A stretch of DNA of 64,000 nucleotides from Acipenser ruthenus (lineage: Eukaryota): positions 10,944,641-11,008,640 of the forward strand of contig NC_081214.1 of the NCBI RefSeq assembly GCF_902713425.1, in the 5' to 3' direction. Position numbers and translations under genes: made by a program. The notes under the pieces were generated by a model. That model made no database searches, was not told the DNA's origin, and saw only the letters and a program-made list of their open reading frames with translations. Positions 712 through 58,214 of the stretch are shown one piece after another (position 1 is the stretch's first letter; the number at the start of each line of letters is the position of its first letter).

Positions 712-727
712 GGGAGAGAGAGAGAGG

Positions 728-774
<47 letters not shown>

Positions 775-917: not shown

Positions 918-918
918 C

Positions 919-26598: not shown

Positions 26599-27001
26599 AG
26601 CCCTCGCATTCACCCTCTGCTGGTGGACATGGCGGAGGCAGAGGCAGCTCCTGCTGCTCTGCTCCTGCCGGTGGAGGTGGCAGAGGCAGAGGCAGCTCCT
26701 GCTGCTCTGCTCTTGCCGGTGGAGGTGGCGGAGGCAGAGTCAGCTCCTGCTGCTCTGCTCCTGCCGGTGGAGGAGGCAGAGGCAGCTCCTGCTGCTCTGC
26801 TCCTGCCGGTGAAGGTGGCGGAAGCAGAGGCAGCTCCTGCTCCTCTGCTCCTGGCAGTGGTGGAGGCAGAGGCAGCTCCTGCTGCTCTGCTCCTAGTGGA
26901 GGAAGCGGTGGAGGTGGGAGCAGCGTGTAGTCTCCTGGCGATGGAGGTGGGAACAGCGTGTAGTCTCCTGACGATGGAGGTGGGAGCAGCGTGTAGTCTC
27001 C

Positions 27002-27544
27002 CTACGTTGCAGGGGTCTGGTGTGGCTCTGCCTCTGTTGCAGGGGACTGGTGCGGCTCTGCCTCTCTTGCAGGGACTGCTGTGGACCGACTCCTCCCTTT
27101 TGGGCTGTGGACGCACTGACTCCTCCCTTTTGGGCTGTGGACGCACCGACTCCCCCCTCTTGGGCTTAGGACGTTCGGGCTCCCCCCACTCAGACGTAGG
27201 ACGTTCGGGCTCCTCCCAGTCAGGCATAGGACGTTCGGGCTCCACCCTCTCAGGCGTAGGACGTTCGGGCTCCTCCCACTCAGGCGTAGGACGTTCGGGC
27301 TCCTCCCGCTTGGGCTGTGGACGCTCAGGCTCCTCCCGCTTGGGCTGTGGATGCTCAGTCTCCTCTTGGGCTGTGGATGCTCAGGTTCCTCCTCATAACT
27401 GCGGAAGGGACAGTTGGCGAACAGATGATCCTGATCGCAGAGGAGGCACCCCGGTGTTGGCTTGTTAAATCGCCGAGGATGTCTGGCCGTTAGGCGGCAC
27501 TCCTCCTCCCTGTCCTTCACCTCTTTATCCTCCTTCCATCCCAT
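27002..27544 (-). CDS. Gag-like N-terminal ORF with a zinc-knuckle-like CX2CX3HX4C motif (MGWKEDKEVKDREEECRL..RFNKPTPGCLLCDQDHLFANCPF...)
   Basis: The ATG lies about 110 nt downstream of the LTR 3' end in a Kozak-like context (aaaATGGg). The sequence CLLCDQDHLFANC follows. This start is conserved in every unit. Confidence 0.4.
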   Translation of the reverse strand: MGWKEDKEVKDREEECRLTARHPRRFNKPTPGCLLCDQDHLFANCPFRSYEEEPEHPQPKRRLSIHSPSGRSLSVHSPSGRSPNVLRLSGRSPNVLRLRGWSPNVLCLTGRSPNVLRLSGGSPNVLSPRGGSRCVHSPKGRSQCVHSPKGRSRSTAVPAREAEPHQSPATEAEPHQTPAT

Positions 27545-27635
27545 TTTATTTATTTATATATATATTTTTTTGTAATCAATTTTTTTTTCCCCAAAAAAAT
27601 GCGGTTCCTGCTCTGGCCTGAGTCCAGGAGGAGCT

Positions 27636-27656
27636 GTCGTCCCGATTCTAACACCA
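27636..27656 (-). promoter_or_regulatory. Putative primer-binding site (TGGTGTTAGAATCGGGACGAC) adjacent to the LTR 3' end, unit 1 only
   Basis: It starts with TGG immediately after ...GTGACACA. The same position in units 2-5 reads TAGTGTCAGAACCGGGACGAC, with TGG changed to TAG. I could not assign a tRNA from memory. Confidence 0.35.
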
Positions 27657-28220
27657 TGTGTCACAAAGACGGCCGGAGTGGGTGGCGTCAGACCAGATCC
27701 AGGAAATAAACAACAGAGACTTGGAGTTTTGGTGAAGCTGAGCACGTGATCGCGCTCAGCATTTAATAATTAACAGACCAGAAAATAAAAAGGGTTGAAC
27801 ACAAAACAGGACACGCCAAAATAAAGAGACAAACAAAGCAGACTACACAGACAAACACGGTGAGCTTCTATTCTTCACAATTACCTCCGTCTCCAATCCC
27901 GATCTCCACTCACCGAACACACAACCCCGAGTGAATGAAAATGTGTCTATATATACTGTTGTGCTGGGATTCAATTACCAATTAATTATTCACTTGAATC
28001 CCAGCACGTGAATTCATTACATGCAAAACCGTGCTCACATATTACACTTAACCAGCACGTGAAGTGATTTGTGCCCTCCTCATGCCTAAATACAAATCTA
28101 CATTTTTAAATACACGTGAAACACAGACCCGTTTATATCCCGTGTACCAATCTCTATACACCAACATTAACACACGCAACATACAACACTTAACACACAG
28201 GGGCGGGGCGCATTGCCACA
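27657..28220 (-). mobile_element. LTR copy 1 of array
   Basis: Reverse complement of the solo-LTR family, TGTGGCAATGCGCC...CTTTGTGACACA. A poly-G tract (PPT) sits directly on its 5' side and a TGG-initiated PBS-like sequence on its 3' side. Confidence 0.8.
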
Positions 28221-28350
28221 TATACCCCCCCCCCTTGTGCGCAGCACACATGGCCTCAACGGCCACCTCCCCCCTTAAAAACCCAGCAGTCCAGGACAAA
28301 GTCTCGGGCTGGGAAGGGAGGCTTCAGTGGGCCCATGGCTGGCAATGCTG

Positions 28351-29880
28351 TCAGCATCCCTGCCGGTAGTGACACGGCTGACAGCATGCTGGTCCACTCC
28401 TGCAGTGAAATTGCTGCGGGGGATGCTGGTCTCCTGACCTTTTCTTCGTAGCCGATAGCTCCCCTTTGTGGGGCTCCGACCACAGTACTTCCGGCAGCGA
28501 AGAAGCTGCAGTGGGAGCAGGTCTCCAGACCTCCCCCACGATCTCCGGCAGCGAAACTACTGCAGTGGGAGCAGGTCTCCTGACCTCCCCCACCTTCTTC
28601 GTGGCCGGCAGCTCCCCTTGGTGGGGTTCCGGCCACAGTACTTCCTGCTGCGATGCGGAGCAACTGGCAGCCGCAGGCGATGGGGAGCGTCTGGCAACCC
28701 CAGGCGATGCGGAGCGGCTGGCAGCCCCAGGCGATGCGGAGCGACAGGCAGCCCCAGGCGATGTCAGACAGGCATCCTTGGGCGAAGCGTGGCAGGCATC
28801 CTTGGGCGAAGCGTGGCAGGCATCCTTGTGCGAAGCGAGGCAGGCATCCTTGGGCGAAGCAAGGCAGGGAGTCAGGACAAGCTGGGGTGCGGGTGTTGGC
28901 CCTATTCTCGACCTCTGCGGCCGGGCGGTTCTTCCCCGTGCTTCCCTCAGCAGCCTATGCAAGGGCCGCTGAGGACCGCCAGCATCTAGGCCTGGGCCGT
29001 CTGGTGAAGGGAGAGGCAGCTCCTGCTCCTCTCCCCCTGATGGTGATGGAGGCAGAGGCAGCTCCCGCTCCTCTCCTCGTGATGATGGGGAAAGTGAAAC
29101 CAGCAGGCATTCATCCTCTGCTGGTGGGGGAAGTGATACCAGCAGGTATTCAGCCTCTGCTGGTGGGGGAAGTGATACCAGCAGGTATTCATCCTGTGCT
29201 GGTGGACAGGGACCCAGCAGGCATTTACCCTCTGCTGGTGGACAGGGACCCAGCAGGCATTCACCCTCTGCTGGTGGACAGGGACCCAGCAGGCATTCAC
29301 CCTCTGCTGGTGGACAGGGACCCAGCAGGCATTCACCCTCTGCTGGTGGACAGGGACCCAGCAGGCATTCACCCTCTGCTGGTGGACATGGCGGAGGCAG
29401 AGGCAGCTCCTGCTGCTCTGCTCCTGCCGGTGGAGGTGGTGGAGGCAGAGGCAGCTCCTGCTGCTCTGCTCCTGTCGGTGGAGGTGGCGGAGGTAGAGGC
29501 AGCTCCTGCTGCTCTGCTCCTGCCGGTGAAGGTGGTGGAAGCAGAGGCAGCTCCTGCTCCTCTGCTCCTGGCGGTGGTGGAGGCAGAGGCAGCTCCTGCT
29601 GCTCTGCTCCTAGTGGAGGAAGCGGTGGAGGTGGCGGAGGCAGAGGCAGCTCCTGCTGCTCTGCTCCTAGTGGCGGAAGCGGTGGAGGTGGGAGCAGCGT
29701 GTACTCCTGACGATGGAGGTGGGAGCAGCGTGTAGTCTCCCGACGTTGCAGGGGACTGGTTTGGCTGTCTCTCTTGCAGGGGACTGGTGCGGCTCTGCCT
29801 CTTGCAGGGACTGGTGCTGCTCTGCCTCTCTTGCAGGGGACTGTAGTGGAGGCAGTGGCGATGGGGCGGATGCTGGCCAC
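28351..29880 (-). CDS. Proline/glutamate-rich repetitive ORF (509 aa in unit 1), continuing the gag-like ORF after a frameshift
   Basis: It is built from in-frame minisatellites whose periods are all multiples of 3. The opposite strand is also open, so coding status is uncertain. Confidence 0.25.
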   Translation of the reverse strand: MASIRPIATASTTVPCKRGRAAPVPARGRAAPVPCKRDSQTSPLQRRETTRCSHLHRQEYTLLPPPPLPPLGAEQQELPLPPPPPPLPPLGAEQQELPLPPPPPGAEEQELPLLPPPSPAGAEQQELPLPPPPPPTGAEQQELPLPPPPPPAGAEQQELPLPPPCPPAEGECLLGPCPPAEGECLLGPCPPAEGECLLGPCPPAEGECLLGPCPPAEGKCLLGPCPPAQDEYLLVSLPPPAEAEYLLVSLPPPAEDECLLVSLSPSSRGEERELPLPPSPSGGEEQELPLPSPDGPGLDAGGPQRPLHRLLREARGRTARPQRSRIGPTPAPQLVLTPCLASPKDACLASHKDACHASPKDACHASPKDACLTSPGAACRSASPGAASRSASPGVARRSPSPAAASCSASQQEVLWPEPHQGELPATKKVGEVRRPAPTAVVSLPEIVGEVWRPAPTAASSLPEVLWSEPHKGELSATKKRSGDQHPPQQFHCRSGPACCQPCHYRQGC

Positions 29881-30220
29881 TCAGAGGGAGGCTGTGGCGG
29901 TGCTGGCTCCCTCTGCTGTGGCGGCTGGGCTGGTGTGTGCCTTGCTCCCTTCAGCAGCATAAATAGAGGCTGCTGGGGGACACCAGCATCCTGCCCTTCT
30001 CCCCCCCAGAAAAATTCAGGGGGTTGAGCCTGTAACTCCTCCCCTTCTGGCTCTTGGGACGGCAGCAGCAGGTGAACCAACAGGCATGCTTCCTCTGCTG
30101 GTGGACACTGGGACAGCAGGCCTTGTTCCTCTGCTGGTGTAGATGGGGACAGCAGGCATTGTTCTTCTGCTGGTGGAGGTGGAACCAGCAGGCATTCTCC
30201 CTCTGCTGGCAGCTTGGCTC

Positions 30221-30697
30221 CTAGGGCTGTGGAAGCCCCGACTTCCCTCTCTTCGGGCTGCGGACGCACCGACTCCTCCCTTTTGGGCTGTGGACGCACC
30301 GACTCCTCCCTTTTGGGATGTGGACGCACCGACTCCCCCCTCTTGGGCTTAGGACTTTCGGGCTCCCCCCACTCAGACGTAGGACGTTCGGGCTCCTCCC
30401 AGTCAGGCGTAGGACGTTCGGGCTCCCACTCAGGCGTAGGACGTTCGGGCTCCTCCCACTCAGGCTAGGACGTTCGGGCTCCTCCCGCTTGGGCTGTGGA
30501 TGCTCAGTTTCCTCCCACTTAGGTTGTGAACGCTCAGGCTCCTCCTCATAACTGCGGAAGGGACAGTTGGCGAACAGATGATCCTGGTCGCAGAGGAGGC
30601 ACCCCGGCGTTGGCTTGTTAAATCGCCGAGGATGTCTGGCCCTTAGGCGGCACTCCTCCTCCCTGTCCTTCACCTCTTTATCCTCCTTCCATCCCAT
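30221..30697 (-). CDS. Gag-like N-terminal ORF, unit 2
   Basis: Same start sequence as 27002-27544. Confidence 0.4.
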   Translation of the reverse strand: MGWKEDKEVKDREEECRLRARHPRRFNKPTPGCLLCDQDHLFANCPFRSYEEEPERSQPKWEETEHPQPKREEPERPSLSGRSPNVLRLSGSPNVLRLTGRSPNVLRLSGGSPKVLSPRGGSRCVHIPKGRSRCVHSPKGRSRCVRSPKRGKSGLPQP

Positions 30698-30810
30698 TTT
30701 ATTTATTTATATATAGATTTTTTTTGTAATCAATTTTTTTTTCCCCAAAAAAATGCGGTTCCTGCTCTGGCCTGAGTCCTGGAGGCGCTGTCGTCCCGGT
30801 TCTGACACTA

Positions 30811-31384
30811 TGTGTCACAAAGACGGCCGGAGTGGGTGGCGTCAGACCAGATCCAGGATATAAACAACAGAGACTTGGAGTTTTGGTGAAGCTGAGCACG
30901 TGATCGCGCTCAGCATTTAATAATTAACAGACCAGAAAATAAAAAGGGTTGAACACAAAACAGGACACCGCACTTCACGCCAAAATAAAGAGACAAACAA
31001 AGCAGACTACACAGAAAAACACGGTGAGCTTCTATTCTTCACAATTACCTCCGTCTCCAATCCCGATCTCCACTCACCGAACACACAACCCCGATTGAAT
31101 GAAAATGTGTCTATATATACTGTTGTGCTGGCATTCAATTACCAATTAATTATTCACTTGAATCCCAGCACGTGAATTCATTACATGCAACCCCGTGCTA
31201 ACATATTACACTTAACCAGCACGTGAAGTGATTTGTGCCCTCCTCATGCCTAAATACAAATCTACATTTTTAAATACACGTGAAACACAGACCCGTTTAT
31301 ATCCCGTGGACCAATCTCTATACACCAACATTAACACACGCAACATACAACACTTAACACACAGGGGCGGGGCGCATTGCCACA
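30811..31384 (-). mobile_element. LTR copy 2 of array
   Basis: Same boundaries: plus-strand tgtgtcaca...attgccaca. Confidence 0.8.
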
Positions 31385-33250
31385 TATACCCCCCCCCTTG
31401 TGCGCAGCACACATGGCCTCAACGGCCACCTCCCCCCTTAAATACCCAGCAGTCCAGGACAAAGTCTCGGGCTGGGAAGGGAGGCTTCAGTGGGCCCATG
31501 GCTGGCAATGCTGTCAGCACCCCTGCCGGTAGTGGCACGGCTGACAGCATGCTGGTCCACTCCTGCAGTGAAATTGCTGCGGGGGATGCTGGTCTCCTGA
31601 CCTTTTCTTCGTAGCCGATAGCTCCCCTTTCTGGGGCTCTGACCACAGTACTTCCGGCAGCGAAGAAGCTTGCAGTGGGAGCAGGTCGCCAGACCTCCCC
31701 ACGATCTCCGGCAGCGAAACTACTGCAGTGGGAGCAGGTCTACTGACCTCCCCGACCTTCTTCATGGCCGGCAGCTCCCCTTGGTGGGGTTCCGGCCACA
31801 GTACTTCCTGCTGCGATGCGGAGCAACTGGCAGCCGCAGGCGATGCGGAGTGGCTGGCAACCCCAGGCGATGCGGAGCGGCTGGCAGCCCCAGGCGATGC
31901 GGAGCGACAGGCAGCCCCAGGTGATGCGGAGCGACAGGCAGCCCCAGGGGATGCCAGACAGGCATCCTTGGGCGAAGCGTGGCAGGCATCCTTGGGCGAA
32001 GTGTGGCAAGCATCCTTGTGCGAAGCGAGGCAGGCATCCTTGGGCGAAGCGAGGCAGGGAGTCAGGACAAGCTGGGGTGCGGGTGTTGGCCCTCTTCTCG
32101 ACCTCTGCGGCCGGGCGGTTCTTCCCCATGCTTCCCTCAGCAGCCTATGCAAGGGCCGCTGAGGACCGCCAGCATCTAGGCCTGGGCCGTCTGGTGAAGG
32201 GAGAGGCAGCTCCTGCTCCTCTCCCCCTGATGGTGATGGAGGCAGAGGCAGCTCCCGCTCCTCTCCTCGTGATGGTGGGGGAAGTGATACCAGCAGGTAT
32301 TCATCCTCTGCTGGTGGACAGGGACCCAGCAGGCATTTACCCTCTGCTGGTGGACAGGGACCCAGCAGGCATTCACCCTCTGCTGGTGGACAGGGACCCA
32401 GCAGGCATTCACCCTCTGCTGGTGGACAGGGACCCAGCAGGCATTCACCCTCTGCTGGTGGACATGGCGGAGGCAGAGGCAGCTCCTGCTGCTCTGCTCC
32501 TGCCGGTGGAGGTGGCGGAGGCAGAGGCAGCTCCTGCTGCTCTGCTCCTGCCGGTAAAGGTGGTGGAAGCAGAGGCAGCTCCTGCTCCTCTGCTCCTGGC
32601 GGTGGTGGAGGCAGAGGCAGCTCCTGCTGCTCTGCTCCTAGTGGAGGAAGCGGTGGAGGTGGCGGAGGCAGAGGCAGCTCCTGCTGCTCTGCTCCTAGTG
32701 GCGGAAGCGGTGGAGGTGGGAGCAGCGTGTACTCCTGACGATGGAGGTGGGAGCAGCGTGTAGTCTCCCGACGTTGCAAGGGACTGGTTTGGCTCTGCCT
32801 CTCTTGCAGGGGACTGGTGCGGCTCTGCCTCTTGCAGGGACTGGTGCAGCTCTGCCTCTCTTGCAGGGGACTGTAGTGGAGGCAGTGGCGACGGGGCGGA
32901 TGCTGGCCACTCAGAGGGAGGCTGTGGCGGTGCTGGCACCCTCTGCTGTGGCGGCTGGGCTGGTGTGTGCCGTGCTCCCTTCAGCAGCATAAATAGAGGC
33001 TGCTGGGGGACACCAGCATCCTTTCCTTCTCCCCCCCAGAAAAATTCAGGGGGTTGAGCCTGTAACTCCTCCCCTTCTGGCTCTTGGGACGGCAGCAGCA
33101 GGTGAACCAACAGGCATGCTTCCTCTGCTGGTGGACACTGGGACAGCAGGCCTTGTTCCTCTGCTAGTGTAGATGGGGACAGCAGGCACTGTTCTTCTTC
33201 TGGTGGAGGTGGAACCAGCAGGCATTCTCCCTCTGCTGGCAGCTTGGGTC

Positions 33251-33757
33251 CTAGGGCTGTGGAAGCCCCGACTTCCCTCTCTTCGGGCTGTGGACGCACC
33301 GACTCCTCCCTTTTGGGCTGTGGACGCACCGACTCCTCCCTTTTGGGCTGTGGACGCACCGACTCCTCCCTTTTGGGCTGTGGACGCACCGACTCCCCCC
33401 TCTTGGGCTTAGGACTTTCGGGCTCCCCCCACTCAGACGTAGGACGTTCGGGCTCCTCCCAGTCAGGCGTAGGACGTTCGGGCTCCCACTCAGGCGTAGG
33501 ACGTTCGGGCTCCTCCCACTCAGGCTAGGACGTTCGGGCTCCTCCCGCTTGGGCTGTGGATGCTCAGTTTCCTCCCACTTAGGTTGTGAACGCTCAGGCT
33601 CCTCCTCATAACTGCGGAAGGGACAGTTGGCGAACAGATGATCCTGGTCGCAGAGGAGGCACCCCGGCGTTGGCTTGTTAAATCGCCGAGGATGTCTGGC
33701 CCTTAGGCGGCACTCCTCCTCCCTGTCCTTCACCTCTTTATCCTCCTTCCATCCCAT
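33251..33757 (-). CDS. Gag-like N-terminal ORF, unit 3
   Basis: Identical to the unit 4 copy (36315-36821). The downstream repetitive ORFs 32445-33389 and 31514-32779 overlap it in other frames. Confidence 0.4.
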   Translation of the reverse strand: MGWKEDKEVKDREEECRLRARHPRRFNKPTPGCLLCDQDHLFANCPFRSYEEEPERSQPKWEETEHPQPKREEPERPSLSGRSPNVLRLSGSPNVLRLTGRSPNVLRLSGGSPKVLSPRGGSRCVHSPKGRSRCVHSPKGRSRCVHSPKGRSRCVHSPKRGKSGLPQP

Positions 33758-33870
33758 TTTATTTATTTATATATAGATTTTTTTTGTAATCAATTTTTTT
33801 TTCCCCCAAAAAATGCAGTTCCTGCTCTGGCCTGAGTCCTGGAGGCGCTGTCGTCCCGGTTCTGACACTA

Positions 33871-34444
33871 TGTGTCACAAAGACGGCCGGAGTGGGTGGC
33901 GTCAGACCAGATCCAGGATATAAACAACAGAGACTTGGAGTTTTGGTGAAGCTGAGCACGTGATCGCGCTCAGCATTTAATAATTAACAGACCAGAAAAT
34001 AAAAAGGGTTGAACACAAAAAAGGACACGGCACTTCACGCCAAAATAAAGAGACAAACAAAGCAGACTACACAGAAAAACACGGTGAGCTTCTATTCTTC
34101 ACAATTACCTCCGTCTCCAATCCCGATCTCCACTCACCGAACACACAACCCCGATTGAATGAAAATGTGTCTATATATACTGTTGTGCTGGCATTCAATT
34201 ACCAATTAATTATTCACTTGAATCCCAGCACGTGAATTCATTACATGCAACCCCGTGCTAACATATTACACTTAACCAGCACGTGAAGTGATTTGTGCCC
34301 TCCTCATGCCTAAATACAAATCTACATTTTTAAATACACGTGAAACACAGACCCGTTTATATCCCGTGGACCAATCTCTATACACCAACATTAACACACG
34401 CAACATACAACACTTAACACACAGGGGCGGGGCGCATTGCCACA
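33871..34444 (-). mobile_element. LTR copy 3 of array
   Basis: Same boundaries; near-identical to copies 2 and 4. Confidence 0.8.
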
Positions 34445-34460
34445 TATACCCCCCCCCCCC
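34445..34460 (-). promoter_or_regulatory. Polypurine tract (AAGGGGGGGGGGGGG) immediately 5' of the LTR
   Basis: Seen as a poly-C run on the plus strand. G-run length varies between units: 10, 9, 13, 8 and 13. Confidence 0.5.
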
Positions 34461-36314
34461 CTTGTGCGCAGCACACATGGCCTCAACGGCCACCTCCCCC
34501 CTTAAATACCCAGCAGTCCAGGACAAAGTCTCGGGCTGGGAAGGGAGGCTTCAGTGGGCCCATGGCTGGCAATGCTGTCAGCACCCCTGCCGGTAGTGGC
34601 ACGGCTGACAGCATGCTGGTCCACTCCTGCAGTGAAATTGCTGCGGGGGATGCTGGTCTCCTGACCTTTTCTTCGTAGCCGATAGCTCCCCTTTCTGGGG
34701 CTCTGACCACAGTACTTCCGGCAGCGAAGAAGCTTGCAGTGGGAGCAGGTCGCCAGACCTCCCCACGATCTCCGGCAGCGAAACTACTGCAGTGGGAGCA
34801 GGTCTACTGACCTCCCCGACCTTCTTCATGGCCGGCAGCTCCCCTTGGTGGGGTTCCGGCCACAGTACTTCCTGCTGCGATGCGGAGCAACTGGCAGCCG
34901 CAGGCGATGCGGAGTGGCTGGCAACCCCAGGCGATGCGGAGCGGCTGGCAGCCCCAGGCGATGCGGAGCGACAGGCAGCCCCAGGTGATGCGGAGCGACA
35001 GGCAGCCCCAGGGGATGCCAGACAGGCATCCTTGGGCGAAGCGTGGCAGGCATCCTTGGGCGAAGTGTGGCAAGCATCCTTGTGCGAAGCGAGGCAGGCA
35101 TCCTTGGGCGAAGCGAGGCAGGGAGTCAGGACAAGCTGGGGTGCGGGTGTTGGCCCTCTTCTCGACCTCTGCGGCCGGGCGGTTCTTCCCCATGCTTCCC
35201 TCAGCAGCCTATGCAAGGGCCGCTGAGGACCGCCAGCATCTAGGCCTGGGCCGTCTGGTGAAGGGAGAGGCAGCTCCTGCTCCTCTCCCCCTGATGGTGA
35301 TGGAGGCAGAGGCAGCTCCCGCTCCTCTCCTCGTGATGGTGGGGGAAGTGATACCAGCAGGTATTCATCCTCTGCTGGTGGACAGGGACCCAGCAGGCAT
35401 TTACCCTCTGCTGGTGGACAGGGACCCAGCAGGCATTCACCCTCTGCTGGTGGACAGGGACCCAGCAGGCATTCACCCTCTGCTGGTGGACAGGGACCCA
35501 GCAGGCATTCACCCTCTGCTGGTGGACATGGCGGAGGCAGAGGCAGCTCCTGCTGCTCTGCTCCTGCCGGTGGAGGTGGCGGAGGCAGAGGCAGCTCCTG
35601 CTGCTCTGCTCCTGCCGGTAAAGGTGGTGGAAGCAGAGGCAGCTCCTGCTCCTCTGCTCCTGGCGGTGGTGGAGGCAGAGGCAGCTCCTGCTGCTCTGCT
35701 CCTAGTGGAGGAAGCGGTGGAGGTGGCGGAGGCAGAGGCAGCTCCTGCTGCTCTGCTCCTAGTGGCGGAAGCGGTGGAGGTGGGAGCAGCGTGTACTCCT
35801 GACGATGGAGGTGGGAGCAGCGTGTAGTCTCCCGACGTTGCAAGGGACTGGTTTGGCTCTGCCTCTCTTGCAGGGGACTGGTGCGGCTCTGCCTCTTGCA
35901 GGGACTGGTGCGGCTCTGCCTCTCTTGCAGGGGACTGTAGTGGAGGCAGTGGCGACGGGGCGGATGCTGGCCACTCAGAGGGAGGCTGTGGCGGTGCTGG
36001 CACCCTCTGCTGTGGCGGCTGGGCTGGTGTGTGCCGTGCTCCCTTCAGCAGCATAAATAGAGGCTGCTGGGGGACACCAGCATCCTTTCCTTCTCCCCCC
36101 CAGAAAAATTCAGGGGGTTGAGCCTGTAACTCCTCCCCTTCTGGCTCTTGGGACGGCAGCAGCAGGTGAACCAACAGGCATGCTTCCTCTGCTGGTGGAC
36201 ACTGGGACAGCAGGCCTTGTTCCTCTGCTAGTGTAGATGGGGACAGCAGGCATTGTTCTTCTTCTGGTGGAGGTGGAACCAGCAGGCATTCTCCCTCTGC
36301 TGGCAGCTTGGGTC

Positions 36315-36821
36315 CTAGGGCTGTGGAAGCCCCGACTTCCCTCTCTTCGGGCTGTGGACGCACCGACTCCTCCCTTTTGGGCTGTGGACGCACCGACTCC
36401 TCCCTTTTGGGCTGTGGACGCACCGACTCCTCCCTTTTGGGCTGTGGACGCACCGACTCCCCCCTCTTGGGCTTAGGACTTTCGGGCTCCCCCCACTCAG
36501 ACGTAGGACGTTCGGGCTCCTCCCAGTCAGGCGTAGGACGTTCGGGCTCCCACTCAGGCGTAGGACGTTCGGGCTCCTCCCACTCAGGCTAGGACGTTCG
36601 GGCTCCTCCCGCTTGGGCTGTGGATGCTCAGTTTCCTCCCACTTAGGTTGTGAACGCTCAGGCTCCTCCTCATAACTGCGGAAGGGACAGTTGGCGAACA
36701 GATGATCCTGGTCGCAGAGGAGGCACCCCGGCGTTGGCTTGTTAAATCGCCGAGGATGTCTGGCCCTTAGGCGGCACTCCTCCTCCCTGTCCTTCACCTC
36801 TTTATCCTCCTTCCATCCCAT
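36315..36821 (-). CDS. Gag-like N-terminal ORF, unit 4
   Basis: Identical to the unit 3 copy. Confidence 0.4.
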   Translation of the reverse strand: MGWKEDKEVKDREEECRLRARHPRRFNKPTPGCLLCDQDHLFANCPFRSYEEEPERSQPKWEETEHPQPKREEPERPSLSGRSPNVLRLSGSPNVLRLTGRSPNVLRLSGGSPKVLSPRGGSRCVHSPKGRSRCVHSPKGRSRCVHSPKGRSRCVHSPKRGKSGLPQP

Positions 36822-36933
36822 TTTATTTATTTATATATAGATTTTTTTTGTAATCAATTTTTTTTCCCCAAAAAAATGCGGTTCCTGCTCTGGCCTGAGT
36901 CCTGGAGGCGCTGTCGTCCCGGTTCTGACACTA

Positions 36934-37507
36934 TGTGTCACAAAGACGGCCGGAGTGGGTGGCGTCAGACCAGATCCAGGATATAAACAACAGAGACTTG
37001 GAGTTTTGGTGAAGCTGAGCACGTGATCGCGCTCAGCATTTAATAATTAACAGACCAGAAAATAAAAAGGGTTGAACACAAAACAGGACACGGCACTTCA
37101 CGCCAAAATAAAGAGACAAACAAAGCAGACTACACAGAAAAACACGGTGAGCTTCTATTCTTCACAATTACCTCCGTCTCCAATCCCGATCTCCACTCAC
37201 CGAACACACAACCCCGATTGAATGAAAATGTGTCTATATATACTGTTGTGCTGGCATTCAATTACCAATTAATTATTCACTTGAATCCCAGCACGTGAAT
37301 TCATTACATGCAACCCCGTGCTAACATATTACACTTAACCAGCACGTGAAGTGATTTGTGCCCTCCTCATGCCTAAATACAAATCTACATTTTTAAATAC
37401 ACGTGAAACACAGACCCGTTTATATCCCGTGGACCAATCTCTATACACCAACATTAACACACGCAACATACAACACTTAACACACAGGGGCGGGGCGCAT
37501 TGCCACA
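36934..37507 (-). mobile_element. LTR copy 4 of array
   Basis: Same boundaries. Confidence 0.8.
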
Positions 37508-39372
37508 TATACCCCCCCCTTGTGCGCAGCACACATGGCCTCAACGGCCACCTCCCCCCTTAAATACCCAGCAGTCCAGGACAAAGTCTCGGGCTGGGAA
37601 GGGAGGCTTCAGTGGGCCCATGGCTGGCAATGCTGTCAGCACCCCTGCCGGTAGTGGCACGGCTGACAGCATGCTGGTCCACTCCTGCAGTGAAATTGCT
37701 GCGGGGGATGCTGGTCTCCTGACCTTTTCTTCGTAGCCGATAGCTCCCCTTTCTGGGGCTCTGACCACAGTACTTCCGGCAGCGAAGAAGCTTGCAGTGG
37801 GAGCAGGTCGCCAGACCTCCCCACGATCTCCGGCAGCGAAACTACTGCAGTGGGAGCAGGTCTACTGACCTCCCCGACCTTCTTCATGGCCGGCAGCTCC
37901 CCTTGGTGGGGTTCCGGCCACAGTACTTCCTGCTGCGATGCGGAGCAACTGGCAGCTGCAGGCGATGCGGAGTGGCTGGCAACCCCAGGCGATGCGGAGC
38001 GGCTGGCAGCCCCAGGCGATGCGGAGCGACAGGCAGCCCCAGGTGATGCGGAGCGACAGGCAGCCCCAGGGGATGCCAGACAGGCATCCTTGGGCGAAGC
38101 GTGGCAGGCATCCTTGGGCGAAGTGTGGCAAGCATCCTTGTGCGAAGCGAGGCAGGCATCCTTGGGCGAAGCGAGGCAGGGAGTCAGGACAAGCTGGGGT
38201 GCGGGTGTTGGCCCTCTTCTCGACCTCTGCGGCCGGGCGGTTCTTCCCCATGCTTCCCTCAGCAGCCTATGCAAGGGCCGCTGAGGACCGCCAGCATCTA
38301 GGCCTGGGCCGTCTGGTGAAGGGAGAGGCAGCTCCTGCTCCTCTCCCCCTGATGGTGATGGAGGCAGAGGCAGCTCCCGCTCCTCTCCTCGTGATGGTGG
38401 GGGAAGTGATACCAGCAGGTATTCATCCTCTGCTGGTGGACAGGGACCCAGCAGGCATTTACCCTCTGCTGGTGGACAGGGACCCAGCAGGCATTCACCC
38501 TCTGCTGGTGGACAGGGACCCAGCAGGCATTCACCCTCTGCTGGTGGACAGGGACCCAGCAGGCATTCACCCTCTGCTGGTGGACATGGCGGAGGCAGAG
38601 GCAGCTCCTGCTGCTCTGCTCCTGCCGGTGGAGGTGGCGGAGGCAGAGGCAGCTCCTGCTGCTCTGCTCCTGCCGGTAAAGGTGGTGGAAGCAGAAGCAG
38701 CTCCTGCTCCTCTGCTCCTGGCGGTGGTGGAGGCAGAGGCAGCTCCTGCTGCTCTGCTCCTAGTGGAGGAAGCGGTGGAGGTGGCGGAGGCAGAGGCAGC
38801 TCCTGCTGCTCTGCTCCTAGTGGCGGAAGCGGTGGAGGTGGGAGCAGCGTGTACTCCTGACGATGGAGGTGGGAGCAGCGTGTAGTCTCCCGACGTTGCA
38901 AGGGACTGGTTTGGCTCTGCCTCTCTTGCAGGGGACTGGTGCGGCTCTGCCTCTTGCAGGGACTGGTGCGGCTCTGCCTCTCTTGCAGGGGACTGTAGTG
39001 GAGGCAGTGGCGACGGGGCGGATGCTGGCCACTCAGAGGGAGGCTGTGGCGGTGCTGGCACCCTCTGCTGTGGCGGCTGGGCTGGTGTGTGCCGTGCTCC
39101 CTTCAGCAGCATAAATAGAGGCTGCTGGGGGACACCAGCATCCTTTCCTTCTCCCCCCCAGAAAAATTCAGGGGGTTGAGCCTGTAACTCCTCCCCTTCT
39201 GGCTCTTGGGACGGCAGCAGCAGGTGAACCAACAGGCATGCTTCCTCTGCTGGTGGACACTGGGACAGCAGGCCTTGTTCCTCTGCTAGTGTAGATGGGG
39301 ACAGCAGGCATTGTTCTTCTTCTGGTGGAGGTGGAACCAGCAGGCATTCTCCCTCTGCTGGCAGCTTGGGTC

Positions 39373-39879
39373 CTAGGGCTGTGGAAGCCCCGACTTCCCT
39401 CTCTTCGGGCTGTGGACGCACCGACTCCTCCCTTTTGGGCTGTGGACGCACCGACTCCTCCCTTTTGGGCTGTGGACGCACCGACTCCTCCCTTTTGGGC
39501 TGTGGACGCACCGACTCCCCCCTCTTGGGCTTAGGACTTTCGGGCTCCCCCCACTCAGACGTAGGACGTTCGGGCTCCTCCCAGTCAGGCGTAGGACGTT
39601 CGGGCTCCCACTCAGGCGTAGGACGTTCGGGCTCCTCCCACTCAGGCTAGGACGTTCGGGCTCCTCCCGCTTGGGCTGTGGATGCTCAGTTTCCTCCCAC
39701 TTAGGTTGTGAACGCTCAGGCTCCTCCTCATAACTGCGGAAGGGACAGTTGGCGAACAGATGATCCTGGTCGCAGAGGATGCACCCCGGCGTTGGCTTGT
39801 TAAATCGCCGAGGATGTCTGGCCCTTAGGCGGCACTCCTCCTCCCTGTCCTTCACCTCTTTATCCTCCTTCCATCCCAT
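39373..39879 (-). CDS. Gag-like N-terminal ORF, unit 5
   Basis: Same as units 3 and 4 except one substitution (CILCDQ). Confidence 0.4.
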   Translation of the reverse strand: MGWKEDKEVKDREEECRLRARHPRRFNKPTPGCILCDQDHLFANCPFRSYEEEPERSQPKWEETEHPQPKREEPERPSLSGRSPNVLRLSGSPNVLRLTGRSPNVLRLSGGSPKVLSPRGGSRCVHSPKGRSRCVHSPKGRSRCVHSPKGRSRCVHSPKRGKSGLPQP

Positions 39880-39991
39880 TTTATTTATTTATATATAGAT
39901 TTTTTTTGTAATCAATTTTTTTTTCCCCAAAAAAATGCGGTTCCTGCTCTGGCCTGAGTCCTGGAGGCGCTGTCGTCCCGGTTCTGACACT

Positions 39992-40566
39992 ATGTGTCAC
40001 AAAGACGGCCGGAGTGGGTGGCGTCAGACCAGATCCAGGATATAAACAACAGAGACTTGGAGTTTTGGTGAAGCTGAGCACGTGATCGCGCTCAGCATTT
40101 AATAATTAACAGACCAGAAAATAAAAAGGGTTGAACACAAAACAGGACACGGCACTTCACGCCAAAATAAAGAGACAAACAAAGCAGACTACACAGAAAA
40201 ACACGATGAGCTTCTATTCTTCACAATTACCTCCGTCTCCAATCCCGATCTCCACTCACCGAACACACAACCCCGATTGAATGAAAATGTGTCTATATAT
40301 ACTGTTGTGCTGGCATTCAATTACCAATTAATTATTCACTTGAATCCCAGCACGTGAATTCATTACATGCAACCCCGTGCTAACATATTACACTTAACCA
40401 GCACGTGAAGTGATTTGTGCCCTCCTCATGCCTAAATACAAATCTACATTTTTAAATACACGTGAAACACAGACCCGTTTATATCCCGTGGACCAATCTC
40501 TATACACCAACATTAACACACGCAACATACAACACTTAACACACAGGGGCGGGGCGCATTGCCACA
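39992..40566 (-). mobile_element. LTR copy 5 of array
   Basis: Same boundaries. The internal region on its 5' side (40567-42694) has no further LTR. Confidence 0.8.
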
Positions 40567-42694
40567 TATACCCCCCCCCCCCCTTGTGCGCAGCACACAT
40601 GGCCTCAACGGCCACCTCCCCCCTTAAATACCCAGCAGTCCAGGACAAAGTCTCGGGCTGGGAAGGGAGGCTTCAGTGGGCCCATGGCTGGCAATGCTGT
40701 CAGCACCCCTGCCGGTAGTGGCACGGCTGACAGCATGCTGGTCCACTCCTGCAGTGAAATTGCTGCGGGGGATGCTGGTCTCCTGACCTTTTCTTCGTAG
40801 CCGATAGCTCCCCTTTCTGGGGCTCTGACCACAGTACTTCCGGCAGCGAAGAAGCTTGCAGTGGGAGCAGGTCGCCAGACCTCCCCACGATCTCCGGCAG
40901 CGAAACTACTGCAGTGGGAGCAGGTCTACTGACCTCCCCCACCTTCTTCATGGCCGGCAGCTCCCCTTGGTGGGGTTCCGGCCACAGTACTTCCTGCTGC
41001 GATGCGGAGCAACTGGCAGCCGCAGGCGATGCGGAGCGGCTGGCAACCCCAGGCGATGCGGAGCGGCTGGCAGCCCCAGGCGATGCAGAGCGACAGGCAG
41101 CCCCAGGTGATGCGGAGCGACAGGCAGCCCCAGGGGATGCCAGACAGGCATCCTTGGGCGAAGCGTGGCAGGCATCCTTGGGCGAAGTGTAGCAAGCATC
41201 CTTGTGCGAAGCGAGGCAGGCATCCTTGGGCGAAGCGAGGCAGGGAGTCAGGACAAGCTGGGGTGCGGGTGTTGGCCCTCTTCTCGACCTCTGCGGCCGG
41301 GCGGTTCTTCCCCATGCTTCCCTCAGCAGCCTATGCAAGGGCCGCTGAGGACCGCCAGCATCTAGGCCTGGGCCGTCTGGTGAAGGGAGAGGCAGCTCCT
41401 GCTCCTCTCCCCCTGATGGTGATGGAGGCAGAGGCAGCTCCCGCTCCTCTCCTCGTGATGGTGGGGGAAGTGATACCAGCAGGTATTCATCCTCTGCTGG
41501 TGGACAGGGACCCAGCAGGCATTTACCCTCTGCTGGTGGACAGGGACCCAGCAGGCATTCACCCTCTGCTGGTGGACAGGGACCCAGCAGGCATTCACCC
41601 TCTGCTGGTGGACAGGGACCCAGCAGGCATTCACCCTCTGCTGGTGGACAGGGTCCCAGCAGGCATTCACCCTCTGCTGGTGGACATGGCGGAGGCAGAG
41701 GCAGCTCCTGCTGCTCTGCTCCTGTCGGTGGAGGTGGCGGAAGCAGAGGCAGCTCCTGCTGCTCTGCTCCTGTCGGTGGAGGTGGCGGAGGCAGAGGCAG
41801 CTCCTGCTGCTCTGCTCCTGCCGGTGAAGGTGGTGGAAGCAGAGGCAGCTCCTGCTCCTGGCGGTGGTGGAGGCAGAGGCAGCTCCTGCTGCTCTGCTCC
41901 TAGTGGAGGAAGCGGTGGAGGTGGCGGAGGCAGAGGCAGCTCCTGCTGCCCTGCTCCTAGTGGTGGAAGCGGTGGAGGTGGGAGCAGCGTGTAGTCTCCT
42001 GACAATGGAGGTGGGAGCAGCGTGTAGTCTCCCGACGTTGCAGGGGACTGGTGTGGCTCTGCCTCTCTTGCAGGGGACTGGTGTGGCTCTGCCTCTCTTG
42101 CAGGGGACTGTGGTGGAGGCAGTGGCGATGGGGCGGATGCTGGCCACTCAGAGGGAGGCTGTGGCGGTGCTGGCTCCCTCTGCTGTGGCGGCTGGGCTGG
42201 TGTGTGCCGTGCTCCCTTCAGCAGCACAAATAGAGGCTGCTGGGGGACACCAGCATCCTTTCCTTCTCCCCCCCAGAAAAATTCAGGGGGTTGAGCCTGT
42301 AACTCCTCCCCTTCTGGCTCTTGGGACGGCAGCAGCAGGTGAACCAACAGGCATGCTTCCTCTGCTGGTGGACACTGGGACAGCAGGCCTTGTTCCTCTG
42401 CTAGTGTAGATGGGGACAGCAGGCACTGTTCTTCTTCTGGTGGAGGTGGAACCAGCAGGCATTCTCCCTCTGCTGGCAGCTTGGGTCCTAGGGCTGTGGA
42501 AGCCCCGACTTCCCTCTCTTCGGGCTGTGGACGCACCGACTCCTCCCTTTTGGGCTGTGGACGCACCGACTCCTCCCTTTTGGGCTGTGGACGCACCGAC
42601 TCCTCCCTTTTGGGCTGTGGACGCACAGGCTCCTCCTCATAACTGCGGAAGGGACAGTTGGCGAACAGATGATCCTGGTTGCAGAGGAGGCACC

Positions 42695-45600
42695 CCGGCG
42701 TGCACACACATGACCAAATCCACAATTCAGCGACATGGCCATGGCAACGATTCACCGACATGACCATAGCCACGATTCACTGACATAACCATAGCCGCAA
42801 TTCAGTAACATGACTATAGCCACGACTGAGTAAGATGACCATAGCCACTTTTGAGTAGCATGACCATAGCTACGATTGAGCAACATGACTATAGCCATGA
42901 TTGAGCAACATGACCATAGCCACGGTTGAGTAACATGACCATAGCCAGGTTTCAGTAACATGACCATAGCCGCGATTCAGTAACATAACCATAGCCACGG
43001 TTGAGTAACATGACCATAGCCACGATAGACGGCCATGACCATAGCTACGATTCAGTAACGTGACCATAGCCACGATTCAGTAACATGATAATAGCCACGA
43101 TTGAGTAACATGACCAAAGCCACGATTGAGCAACATCACCATAGCCACGATTCAGTAACATGACCATAGCTGCAATTCAGTAACATGAACATAGCTACGA
43201 TTTAGTAACATGACCATATCCACGGTTGAGCAACATCCACCATAGCCACCATTGAGTAACATGACCATTGCCACGATCGAGCAACATGATCATATCCACG
43301 ATTCAGTAACATGACCATAGCCACGATTCAGCGACATGACCATTGCCACGATTCAATAACATGACTATAGCCACGGTTGAGCAAAATGACCATAGCCACT
43401 TTTGAGTAGCATGACCATAGCTACGATTGAGTAATATTACCATAGCCACGGGTGAGTAACATGACCATAACCAGGTTTAAGTAACATGACCATAGCATCG
43501 ATTCAGTAACATGAACGTTGCCACGGTTGAGTAACATGACCATAGCCAGGTTTCAGTAAAATGACCATAGCCTCGATTGAGTAACATGACCATAGTCACT
43601 ATTGAGTAACATGACCATAGCAATGATTCACCAACATGACCATAGCCACGATTCACTGACATAACCATAGCCGCAATTCAGTAACATGACCATAGCCACG
43701 AATGAGTAAGATGACCAACGCCACGATTGAGCAACATGACCATAGCTACGATTGAGGACCATGACCATAGCAGCGATATAGTAATATTACCATAGCCACG
43801 GGTGAGTAACATGACCATAACCAGGTTTAAGTAACATGACCATAGCATCGATTCAGTAACATGAACGTTGCTACGGTTGAGTAACATGACCATAGCCAGG
43901 TTTCAGTAAAATGACCATAACCTCGATTCAGTAACATGACCGTAGTCACTATTAAGTAACATGACCATAGCAACGATTCACCAACATGACCATAGCCACG
44001 ATTCACTGACATAACCTGACATAAGTTCAGCAGTGTGGACTAGTGGTTAGGGCTCTGGACTCTTGACCGGAGGGTCATGGGTTCAATCCCCGGTGGGGAC
44101 ACTGCTGCTGTACCCTTGAGCAAGGTACTTTACCTAGATTGCTCCAGTTAAAAACCCAACTGTATAAATGGGTAATTGTATGTAAAAATAATGTGATATC
44201 TTGTAAGTCGCCCTGGATAAGGGCGTCTGCTAAGAAATAAAATAAATAAATAAATAACCATAGCCGCAATTCAGTAACATGACCATAGTCACTATTGAGT
44301 AACATGACCATATCCACGGTTGAGCAACATCGACCATAGCCATCATTGAGTAAGATGACCATAGCCACTTTTCAATAATATGACCATAGCCACGACTTAA
44401 TAACATGCCATAGCTATGATTCAGTAAAATGACCATAACCAGTATTCACTGACATGATCATAGCCATGATTCAATAACATGCCATAGCTATGATTCAGTA
44501 AAATGAACATATCCACGATTCACTGACATGACCATAGCCACGTTTGAGTAACATGACCATAGCCATGATTAAATAACATGACCATAGCCACAATTCACTG
44601 ACATGACCATAGCCACGATTGAGAAACATCACCATAGCCTCGATTGAGTAACATGACCATAGCCACGGTTGAGTAACATGACCATAGCCACGATTGAGTA
44701 ACGACCATAGCAACGATTGAGCAACATGACCATAGCCAGGGTTGAGCAACATGACCATAGCCACGACTGAGCAATATGACCATAGCCACGATGGAGTAAC
44801 ATGACCATAGCCACGATTGAACAACATGACCATATCCACGATTCTGTAACATGACCATAGCCACTTTTGACTAGCATGATCATAGCTACGATTGAGCAAT
44901 ATGACCATAGCCACGATTGAGCAACATGACCATAGCCACAGTTGAGTAACATGACAACAGCGATTGAGTAACATGACCATAGCCACGATTCAGTAACATG
45001 ACCATAGACACGGTTGAGTAACATTACCATAGCCACGATTGAGTAACATGACCATAAGCCACGATTCAGTAAAATGACCATAGCCACGGTTGAGTAACAT
45101 GATCATAGCCACGACTGAGCAACATGACCTTAGCCACGATTCAGTAACATGACCATATCCACGATTGAGTAAGATGACCATAGCCACGATTCAATAACAT
45201 GACCATAGCCACGATTCAGTAACATGGCCATAGCCACGATTCACTGACATGACCATAGCCACGATTGAGTAAACTGAAAATAGCCACGATTGAGCAACAT
45301 GACCATAGCCATGATTGAGCAACATGACCATAGCAATGATTCAGTAACGTGACCATAGCCACGATTCAGTAACATGAACTTAGCCACGGTTGAGTAACAT
45401 GACCATAGCCAGGTTTCAGTAAAATGACCATAGCCACAATTCACTGACATGACCATAGCTGTGATTCAGTAATATGACCATAGCCAGGTTTCAGTAAAAT
45501 GACCATAGCCACAATTCACTGACATGACCATAGCTGTGATTCAGTAATATGATCATAGAAACGACTGAGTAAGATGACAATCGCCACTTTTGAGTAGCAT

Positions 45601-54600: not shown

Positions 54601-56385
54601 AGCCACGATTGAGCAACATGACCATAGCCTCGATTCAGTAATATGACCATAGCCACGATTAAGTAACATGACCATAGCCATGGTTGAGCAACATGACCAT
54701 AGCCACAAATGAGTAAAATGGCCATAGCCACGACTGAGCAACATGACCATAGCCACGATGGAGTAACATGACCATAGCCACAATTGAGTAACGACCATAG
54801 CAACGATTGAGCAACATGACCATAGCCAGGGTTGAGCAACATGACCATAGCCACAAATGAGTAAAATGGCCATAGCCACAACTGAGCAACATGACCATAG
54901 CCACGGTTGAGCAACATGACCATAGCCACGATGGAGTAACATGACCATAGCCACGATTGAACAACATGACCATATCCACGATTCTGTAACATGACCATGG
55001 CCACGACTCAGCGACATGACCTTAGGCACGATTCAATAACTTGACCATAGCCACGGTTGAGCAAAATGACCATAGCCACGATTCACTGACATGACCATAG
55101 CCACGGTTGAGTACCATGACCATAGCCATGATTAAATAACATGAATAATCACGATTCAGTAACATGACCATAGCCAAGATTCAGTAACATGACCATAGCC
55201 TCAATTCAGCGACATGGCCATAGCAACGATTCACCGACATGACCATAGCTCAATTCAGCGAGATGGCCACAGCAACAATTCAGTAACATGACCATAGCCA
55301 CGACTGAGTAACATGACCGTAGCCACTTTTGACTAGCATGACCATAGCTACGATTGAGCAATATGACCATAGCCACGACTCAATAACATGACCATAGCCA
55401 CGATTCAGTAACATGACCATAGCCACGATTCACTGATATGACCATAGCCACGATTGAGTAAAATGAAAATAGCCACGATTGAGCAACATGACCATAGCCA
55501 CAATTGAGCAACATGACCATAGGAATGATTCAGTAACGTGACCATAGCCACGATTCAGTAACATGAACTTAGCCACGGTTGAGTAACATGACCATAGCCA
55601 GGTTTCAGTAAAATGACCATAGCCACGATTCAGTAACATGAAAATAGCCACGATTGAGCAACATGACCATAGCCACAATTCAATGACATGACCATAGCCG
55701 TGATTCAGTAACATGATCATAGCCGCGATTCAGTAACATGACCGTAGCCATGAATGAGTAACATGACCATAGCCACGGTTTAGAAACATGACTATAGCCA
55801 CGATGGAGCAACATGACCATAGCCTCGATTCAGTAACATGACCATAGCCACGATTAAGTAACATGACCATAGCCATGGTTGAGCAACATGACCATAGCCA
55901 CGATTAAGTAACATGACCATAGCCACGATTGAGCAACATGACCATAGCAACGATTGAGCAACATGACCATAGCAAAGATTGAGCAACATGACCATAGCCA
56001 CGGTTGAGCAATATGACCATAGCCACGATTGAGGACCATGACCATAGCTGCGATTGAGTAATATGACCATAGCCACGGTTGAATAACATGACTATAACCA
56101 GGTTTAAGTAACATGACCTTAGAATCGATTCAGTAACATGAACATTGCCACGGTTGAGTAACATGACCATAACCAGGTTTAAGTAACATGACCATAGCTA
56201 CGGTTCAGCAACATGACAATAGCCACGATTGAGCAACATGACCATAGCCACGATTGAGTAACATGACCATAGCCACGATTGAGTAACATGACCATAGCCA
56301 TGATTCAGTAACATGACCATAGTCATGATTGAGGACCATGACCATAGCTGCGATTGAGTAATATGACCATAGCCACAGCTGAATA
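42695..56385. repeat. 25-bp tandem satellite, block C, with variable higher-order repeats of about 1.7-2.1 kb
   Basis: Same monomer and orientation. Identical ORF-track translations recur at +2108 (47263 and 49371; 48350 and 50458), +1733, +1870 and +1696. Confidence 0.95.
44017..44253 (+). mobile_element. tRNA-derived CORE/MIR-like SINE inserted in the satellite
   Basis: The tRNA-like head is gtggactagtggttagggc...gggttcaatcccc (A and B boxes). The central CORE-like segment is cccttgagcaaggtactttacct...ctgtataaatgggtaatt. The LINE-type tail is ttgtaagtcgccctggataagggcgtctgctaa followed by (AAAT)n. It is flanked by an ATAACC target-site duplication at 44011-44016 and 44254-44259. Confidence 0.8.
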
Positions 56386-58021: not shown

Positions 58022-58214
58022 GTTGTCCGTGTCCTCCTTTGTAAAAACCTGTGAAAAGTAATCATTTAATATATTTGCTATTTTTTTTTCTTCATCTATG
58101 ATTTTGCCATTTGTGTCTCTTAGACATTTAACCTCCTCTTTGAATGTTCTCTTGCTGTTATAATATTGGAAAATATTTTCGAATTGGTTTTAGCCCCCTT
58201 AGCAATATTGATTT

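Follow-up and report, generated by a model that had tools for sequence, protein, structure and literature searches.

The tandem array that lies between two satellites in a 64-kb window of Acipenser ruthenus DNA (contig NC_081214.1; the window is the whole stretch analyzed, and positions are counted from its first letter) very probably arose when a single, already-dead copy of a non-autonomous long terminal repeat (LTR) retrotransposon restricted to sturgeon and paddlefish was amplified in tandem at the DNA level. Sense is on the minus strand. The open reading frame (ORF) that it carries was once a real, constrained gene in the source lineages, but the array is not under coding selection now. 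An earlier suspicion that the repeated ORF was linked to LTRs and had once been coding was therefore borne out, while the idea of a working protein from this locus was not, the array being pseudogenised.

The array was delimited by k-mer spacing and unit alignment to 26600..42701 on the minus strand. It forms a block of ~60% GC with a k-mer period of ~3.06 kb between a 72-bp and a 25-bp satellite, and contains five LTRs together with six internal regions, of which four are full and two are truncated, at a period of ~3,059-3,164 bp. Each unit consists of an LTR, a leader, an ORF-like internal region and a polypurine tract (PPT); in a full unit these are a 572-bp LTR block, a leader of 115 nt that ends in aaaATGGg, a stop-poor region of ~2.3 kb and a G-run. 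In the sense direction, unit U5p (42701..40571), which is 5'-truncated just upstream of the zinc knuckle of the ORF and abuts the 25-bp satellite, is followed by the full units U4 (40570..37512), U3 (37511..34449), U2 (34448..31389) and U1 (31388..28225) and by the divergent U0p (28224..~26600), which has an internal deletion and abuts the 72-bp satellite. U2-U4, with lengths of 3,059-3,063 bp, differ from one another by 4-9 substitutions and are 99.7-99.9% identical across LTR and interior. U1 (3,164 bp) is separated from them by ~40 substitutions and by indels, and U0p is ~12% divergent.

The boundaries of the LTR were taken from two paralogous loci, L002 and L006, in which the element is flanked by target site duplications (TSDs). 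The LTR of U2 (TGTGGCAATG...TTGTGACA) spans 33873..34444 on the minus strand, with matching ends, located by anchors, at 39995 (U4), 36936 (U3) and 30813 (U1) and a further copy in U0p at ~27660-28220, all on the same strand. A primer binding site (PBS) remnant, TAGTGTCAGAACCGGGAC, lies 2 nt past the LTR at 33853..33870 (minus strand); intact paralogs read TGGTGTCAGAACCGGGAT here. In U1-U4 the PBS is mutated from TGG to TAG, and U0p retains TGG. The PPT, AAGGGGGGGGG, at 31389..31399 (minus strand), is followed by TATA and then by the next LTR. Thus, there is one LTR per unit, with a PPT directly 5' and a PBS directly 3' of it. The TSD test is inapplicable to the array itself, both ends of which are cut off by satellites.

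The dispersed copies provided the intact structure. At L002, LTRs at 9255-9873 and 11875-12468 (TGTGGCAATG...CCTGTCACA, with TG..CA ends) are 96% identical and flanked by a perfect 5-bp TSD, AACAG/AACAG. The PBS TGGTGTCAGAACCGGGAT begins 2 nt after the 5' LTR, the PPT AAGGGGGGG precedes the 3' LTR, and the 2-kb interior holds the ORF only. At L006 the LTRs are 89.5% identical, the TSD is GTAGG/GTAGG and a PBS is present, and at L003 and L005 the ORF has LTR-like sequence on either side. The LTR of the window shows homology to those of L002 and L006, and the ~572-bp flanking block is a real LTR. The intact element measures ~3.1-3.3 kb and has LTRs of ~570-630 bp with TG...CA ends, 5-bp TSDs and a G-rich PPT. 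Because its interior of ~2-2.5 kb holds only the knuckle-bearing, proline-rich ORF, without pol, the element is non-autonomous, and the family is one of non-autonomous LTR retrotransposons with an ORF in the gag position only.

The ORF does not survive intact in any unit. The first-pass annotation had described a single minus-strand ORF beginning about 110 nt after the LTR in the Kozak-like context aaaATGGg. The start codon was confirmed, at 39879, 36821, 33757, 30697 and 27544, with 115 nt between it and the LTR end at 33873 in U2. However, the ATG frame of U1-U4 stops after 168 aa, at 33251 in U2. The ORF of U2 therefore occupies 33251..33757, and the ancestral sense frame accounts for no more than its first ~77 aa (33757..33527). 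The equivalent ORFs are at 39373..39879, 36315..36821 and 30221..30697, and one of 180 aa is at 27002..27544, all on the minus strand. The sense reading of U1-U4 runs from frame 0 to 2, back to 0 and again to 2 across three small deletions (deleted bases in brackets). The first is a 1-bp deletion, CCTA[C]GCCT, within a 30-bp PEWEEPERPT repeat (33526..33527) and is common to U1-U4. The second, a 2-bp deletion, GGAG[AC]TACACG, in a GDYTLLPPP repeat (32731..32732), is present in U1-U4 and absent from U0p and U5p. The third, seen in comparison with paralog L003, removes 4 bp, ACGAAGAA[GGGG]GAGGTC (31604..31605), and is common to U1-U5p; past it the ancestral frame ends in EWTSMLSAVPLPAGVLTALPAMGPLKPPFPARDFVLDCWVFKGGGGR and a stop. 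All three are given in minus-strand orientation. In addition to the third lesion U5p carries an 8-bp deletion of its own, and U0p has two other frameshifts plus an in-frame TAG. The small indels among units or relative to paralogs, of 1, 1, 1, 2, 2, 4 and 8 bp, are all of lengths that are not multiples of three (non-3n).

When the first two deletions were repaired, a stop-free frame of 748 codons was obtained, with 21% proline and 13% glutamate. With all three repairs the ancestral coding region of U2 extends over 31419..33757 (minus strand), ~770 codons, and ends in a TGA at 31421..31419. The reconstructed protein starts with the knuckle head, the PEWEEPERPT and PQPKREESVR repeats and the ECLL repeats. 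These are followed by a non-repetitive middle, QEPEGEELQAQPPEFFWGGEG...LFMLLKGARH, then by AREAEPHQSP, GDYTLLPPP, GAEQQELPLPPPPP, CPPAEGECLLGP, SPKDACLA and SPGAACRSA repeats, and finally by WPEPHxGELPATKK repeats and a conserved tail. In the intact element the ORF encodes at least one nucleocapsid (NC)-type zinc knuckle and then a long, probably disordered, proline- and glutamate-rich tail of in-frame repeats. Two short patterns were noted in the repeats, as pattern matches only: a dileucine-like EGECLL, which fits [DE]xxxL[LI], at 32290-32464, and a YxxL-like DYTLL at 32740-32800 (both minus strand). The terminal ~170 nt of the ORF in this family (MLSAVPLPAGVLTALPAMGPLKPPFPARDFVLDCWVFKGGGG plus the stop) were found at 31419-31590 (minus strand) in the window, at L001 7390-7560 and at L003 11850-12020; they share at least ~95% DNA identity, whereas the rest of the proteins are 50-70% identical. 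This conserved end may be a cis-acting segment adjoining the PPT.

Some of the peptides cited earlier for the minus-strand ORF have to be reassigned. PQPKREESVR is indeed encoded on the minus strand but out of the ATG frame, while PAGIHPLLVDRD and AEAEAAPAALLLPVEV are plus-strand translations whose sense equivalents are CPPAEGECLLGP and GAEQQELPLPPP. Their source is an antisense ORF of 315 aa at 31816..32763 on the plus strand, repeated at 34880, 37938 and 41002. These plus-strand ORFs, already recognized in the first reading of the sequence, are judged to be by-products of the stop-poor, repeat-rich sense sequence.

Tandem Repeats Finder detected periods of 24, 27, 30, 30, 30, 36, 36, 42, 48, 57 and 90 bp within one unit. 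All eleven are multiples of three (3n), in agreement with the initial description; given roughly eight independent arrays, the chance of this is ~(1/3)^8. The tail is not made entirely of minisatellites, as had been stated, since tandem repeats make up 59% of the region of the ORF. The reported difference in copy number between the first unit and the rest was seen as indels of 30, 84, 78 and 27 bp. These correspond to whole repeat units gained or lost, and they are 3n because the repeat unit lengths are 3n; they are not evidence of selection. The same peptide repeats occur in intact paralogs at other in-frame copy numbers, such as ten copies of PEWEEPERPT in P0001. The paralogous locus L001 (925-5400, 8532-9920 and 13029-15000) abounds in 36-, 44- and 45-bp minisatellites and holds a ~25-copy expansion of the 36-bp CPPAEGECLLGP repeat. 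From these, parts of the element appear to be prone to runaway expansion.

Past selection on the ORF was evaluated from the ratio of nonsynonymous to synonymous substitution rates (dN/dS) between the window and its paralogs, in DNA-guided, ungapped blocks of 30-96 codons. The sense frame, stop-free throughout, gave values of 0.20 (head, p=0.003), 0.30, 0.39 and 0.31. The other five frames were at ~1 apart from a partial co-lowering in antisense, and one antisense frame, also stop-free, was as low as the sense frame (0.31) in the shortest block, of 92 nt. An excess of synonymous changes together with zero stops was confined to the sense frame in three of the four blocks and overall. This constraint contradicts the alternative, raised at the outset, that the 3n periods are a coincidence. 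Selection for an open frame is thus supported for the family, with a sense-frame dN/dS of 0.2-0.4, but not for this locus, where every unit is frameshifted; of the two proposed checks, dN/dS against paralogs was low and the small indels of the units were all non-3n. An uninterrupted ORF with indels of 3n length only, as expected of a functional gene, was not found, U1-U4 sharing three frameshifts and U0p carrying a TAG. Since the units contain frameshifts and non-3n small indels, the 3n periods were inherited from a once-selected coding sequence and are not maintained in the array. They are relics of coding constraint and do not indicate that a protein is made from this locus.

Searches with the reconstructed protein identified 109 relatives, and searches seeded with paralog N-termini added ~120, for a total of ~230. 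All came from Acipenser sinensis, A. ruthenus or Polyodon spathula, and at the DNA level the window is up to 93% identical to A. sinensis loci. A HMMER scan of 1.84 billion representative sequences with an N-terminal/knuckle profile returned 88 matches and no pol-bearing relative. The source was checked for ten of the 88: nine were from A. sinensis and one was a spurious low-complexity match from a characiform. Many relatives are chimeric gene models joined to host domains (TSP1, EF-hand, LRR, kinase), and such fusions are the signature of an unmasked repeat. Apart from P0065, which contains RVT_1, no pol domain was present among the ~230 family proteins. P0065 was considered as a pol-linked relative and set aside, as it looks like a chimeric gene model itself. 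No description of the sturgeon family was found in the literature searched, Repbase and Dfam lying outside its scope, and the element family seems to be undescribed.

The head of the ORF contains the zinc-knuckle-like motif CLLCDQDHLFANC (33623..33661, minus strand; aa 33-45 of the ATG ORF). The CX2CX3HX4C pattern noticed at first sight is present, and the C, C, H and C are retained in all six copies, with variants CILC in U4 and CLLCNQDH in U5p. The ligands are invariant across three paralog subfamilies. P0058 and P0061 have the same start methionine (MRWKKDQEVRDREEEE...) and the knuckle CPLCNQQHQFAAC, both retained at 55% identity; P0001, P0004, P0028, P0040 and P0044 carry CLLCDQDHLFA[NH]C; and in P0019 and other members of a multi-knuckle subfamily there are four knuckles of canonical CX2CX4HX4C spacing, as read by eye, plus CPICGGEH[FY]VA[HR]C. 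Because three paralog subfamilies carry CX2CX3HX4C, the spacing, one residue short of canonical, is a conserved variant and not decay.

A family head profile matched the eIF3g zinc knuckle in the PDB with E=3.3e-5 (human 2mjc, E=0.003), which shares the CX2CX3HX4C spacing of the window motif, and the HIV-2 NC knuckle weakly (E=0.17). In Pfam, the reconstructed ORF, the 77-aa head and two plus-strand ORFs gave nothing above threshold and a sub-threshold eIF3g match only. The Pfam search of the head for zf-CCHC and Retrotrans_gag that had been suggested as a check accordingly yielded no match for the window protein. One paralog, P0025, passes the zf-CCHC model (22.6 > 20.8), and no Gag or capsid domain was detected by Pfam in the window ORF or the paralogs. 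In an AlphaFold2 model of the 76-aa head built with 17 paralogs, the mean predicted local distance difference test (pLDDT) score was 64 and the knuckle was modelled without confidence. The model of a longer paralog showed a three-helix N-terminal bundle (pLDDT 60-83) with the remainder disordered. This ~77-aa three-helix domain (MTTAEDARKLRDWILENAGLEA...) is highly conserved in P0001, P0004 and P0164-P0199 and absent from the window subfamily, and in some family copies LPPQPK and PQPK have no knuckle module between them, a pattern suggestive of protein modules being gained and lost in the family. The earlier term "Gag-like" holds for the NC-type knuckle but not for the rest, a capsid-like domain and a Pfam Gag match both being wanting. 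Since the window protein matches neither the Pfam Gag nor the zf-CCHC model, NC-knuckle-bearing is a better term for it than Gag.

Duplication at the DNA level is favored because there is a single LTR per junction, the lesions are shared and U2-U4 are almost identical. The possibility was considered that the units were instead inserted independently, by nested or repeated retrotransposition. LTR elements often target their own kind, and U0p, at ~12% divergence, and U5p are perhaps older or separate copies. However, one LTR is shared at each junction and no TSDs lie between units, the three frameshifts and the PBS mutation are common to U1-U4, the identity of 99.7-99.9% among U2-U4 extends over LTR and interior alike, and a broken PBS would hamper the transposition of a copy. 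Independent insertion is therefore very unlikely. It is equally hard to believe that the units are functional tandem host genes, domesticated and gag- or NC-like, perhaps with programmed frameshifting at the three frame changes. The Kozak-like ATG is kept in five units, the Cys/His ligands of the knuckle are retained in six of six copies, the ratio of nonsynonymous to synonymous polymorphism (pN/pS) within the array is below 1, and the open stretches of 488 and 359 codons in the array exceed the 95th percentile (293 codons) of Markov-simulated sequence of the same composition. Nevertheless, compared with sister repeats, U0p/U5p and paralogs, the frame changes prove to be plain deletions of 1, 2 and 4 bp, and no slippery-site context was seen at them; programmed frameshifting was rejected on the ground that they are such simple deletions. 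Furthermore, U0p and U5p carry additional, distinct lesions, including the TAG, the locus sits between two satellites, the units have the LTR/PBS/PPT architecture of a transposon, and the ATG frame is just 168 aa, half of which is an out-of-frame repeat.

That the locus has no coding history at all, being GC-rich minisatellite DNA in which the 3n periods and the ORFs on two strands are coincidental, is extremely improbable. The plus strand is open for 315-360 aa, the Markov-simulated open stretches average ~200 codons, Pfam is negative, and the neighboring 72-bp satellite likewise has a 3n period. Against this, about eight of eight independent arrays are 3n, and the 748 stop-free codons reached after two repairs surpass the longest open stretch, 549 codons, in 2,000 simulations. 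Moreover, the start, knuckle, middle and tail are shared by a family of proteins, and the excess of synonymous changes is limited to the sense frame in three of the four aligned blocks.

Under the favored amplification of a dead copy, the live element would have been transcribed from its LTR, and the knuckle protein would have been translated and would have bound the RNA of its own element. Reverse transcription and integration would have been carried out in trans by the enzymes of an autonomous element. Unequal LTR-LTR exchange could then have produced an LTR-internal-LTR-internal-LTR structure, which further unequal crossing-over would have expanded into the array, all after the death of the ORF. 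As long as active master copies had a working gene, the repeat expansions would have been forced in frame, giving rise to the 3n periods; later changes in copy number would reflect slippage of whole units and would be 3n without selection.

A candidate for the autonomous partner is a Gmr1-like Ty3/gypsy element. An intact one at L004 (13919-19235) has the PR-IN-RT-RH (protease, integrase, reverse transcriptase, RNase H) order, a SCAN-type Gag and zf-CCHC, and its PBS is identical to that of the family at 16 of 18 positions. The 2-nt CG spacer is also the same, and the leader is A-rich. The C-terminal pol end of a Gmr1-like Ty3/gypsy element (...ARITRWYLALQPF..HRAGKDHLNADYFSREGG) is also present in the window, at 63208-63633 (minus strand).

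Several points weigh against the interpretation as a whole. The blocks used for dN/dS are short, though they agree with one another, and the paralogs are gene-model predictions, which are biased to open frames. Within the array, pN/pS is 0.5-0.7 and not 1, on few substitutions; the transition/CpG bias of Nei-Gojobori (NG86) counting may account for this, and the value is not taken as a sign of constraint, though it leaves a residual uncertainty. The copies verified by TSDs number two, L002 and L006. The window protein has no Retrotrans_gag or zf-CCHC match in Pfam, so that the label "gag" derives from the position of the ORF in the element and the knuckle alone, and the three-helix N-terminal domain had no match in the PDB at E<1 (Foldseek). 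As to the partner, the family N-terminal profile aligned with the Gmr1-like SCAN-type Gag at an hhalign probability of 0.2%, protein searches and the exhaustive HMMER scan yielded no pol-linked relative, and no partner was demonstrated. The tRNA of the PBS is putatively Leu-CAA-like, and no tRNA gene for it was found by ARAGORN in the six loci scanned.

The remainder of the window is a satellite landscape. The 25-bp satellite occupies 1-11,976, 42,708-56,376 and 59,295-61,294, and the GC-rich 72-bp satellite fills 11,974-26,579. Neither consensus had any homology to the element by blastn, and an Rfam scan of the array gave zero matches. The 72-bp satellite, whose period is also 3n, was found at ~87% identity at L006 414-2860, on an A. 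sinensis contig, a few kb from an LTR element of the same family. A CR1-like long interspersed nuclear element (LINE) with APE endonuclease and RVT_1 domains confirmed by Pfam lies inside the 25-bp satellite at 56468-59188, and a second, truncated copy follows 2 kb onward at 61414-62868 (both minus strand).

The locus itself is decayed repeat DNA, and the long ORFs on neither strand merit gene annotation. The family contaminates the A. sinensis gene set with roughly 230 models, and a curated consensus would clean sturgeon annotation. More broadly, purifying selection can maintain a gag-position ORF cut down to knuckles and a repetitive tail in a non-autonomous LTR element of a vertebrate, 3n periodicity outlasts the death of the gene as a fossil of coding constraint, and LTR elements can turn into higher-order tandem repeats beside classical satellites. 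A bolder proposal, which we regard as doubtful though possible, is that the family represents an "NC-only", semi-autonomous class of LTR element restricted to Acipenseriformes, its knuckle-and-tail protein still selected in young subfamilies, of which the P0019 cluster of nine near-identical members is cited as an example, and acting as an active seed of arrays. If so, in-frame minisatellites and LTR-internal tandemisation would seed macro- and minisatellite arrays in satellite-rich chromosome regions, and the locus would be a rare observable intermediate between transposon and satellite DNA and a vertebrate counterpart of the plant TR-GAGs.

TR-GAGs, cited in PMC13570524, are plant terminal-repeat retrotransposons with a GAG domain, under 4 kb, with an LTR-PBS-ORF-PPT-LTR structure, a single ORF in the gag position and no pol, presumed to be mobilised in trans. 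The sturgeon element fits them in structure and size, its gag identity coming from ORF position and an NC-like knuckle alone. Unlike TR-GAGs, it resides in a vertebrate, has only a candidate partner, and encodes NC-type knuckles and a proline-rich repeat tail without a recognizable capsid or Retrotrans_gag domain; the likeness is architectural, and sequence homology is not expected. The element also resembles the MaLR/ERV-L-related elements (THE1, MST, MT, ORR1), non-autonomous LTR elements of ~2-3 kb with mere traces of gag. ERV-L elements (class III endogenous retroviruses, ERVs) have a 5-bp TSD and a Leu-type PBS. The resemblance is loose and without demonstrated homology, as MaLRs are specific to mammals, the sturgeon minisatellites lie inside the ORF and in frame, and the candidate partner is a Gmr1-like Ty3/gypsy element, not a class III ERV. 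MaLRs have been linked to the birth of hypervariable minisatellites (PMC6466679).

The knuckle shares with the retroviral NC knuckle (zf-CCHC, CX2CX4HX4C) the Cys-Cys-His-Cys ligands, flanking basic residues and a CP past the last Cys, and family paralogs have up to five knuckles, four of them canonically spaced. However, the window knuckle is one residue short and fails the Pfam model. The same spacing is found in the zinc-binding knuckle of eIF3g, which has been solved (PDB 2mjc, 6zu9); this similarity spans ~37 residues only and probably reflects convergence or a pattern-level resemblance, the window knuckle being a putative zinc- or RNA-binding loop. Finally, the head-to-tail units, the shared single LTRs and the position beside classical satellites are those of tandem LTR-internal-LTR arrays and satellites derived from transposable elements. 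The sturgeon array differs from other such satellites in having only about five units and in its coding-derived internal minisatellites, which result in a three-level repeat hierarchy.

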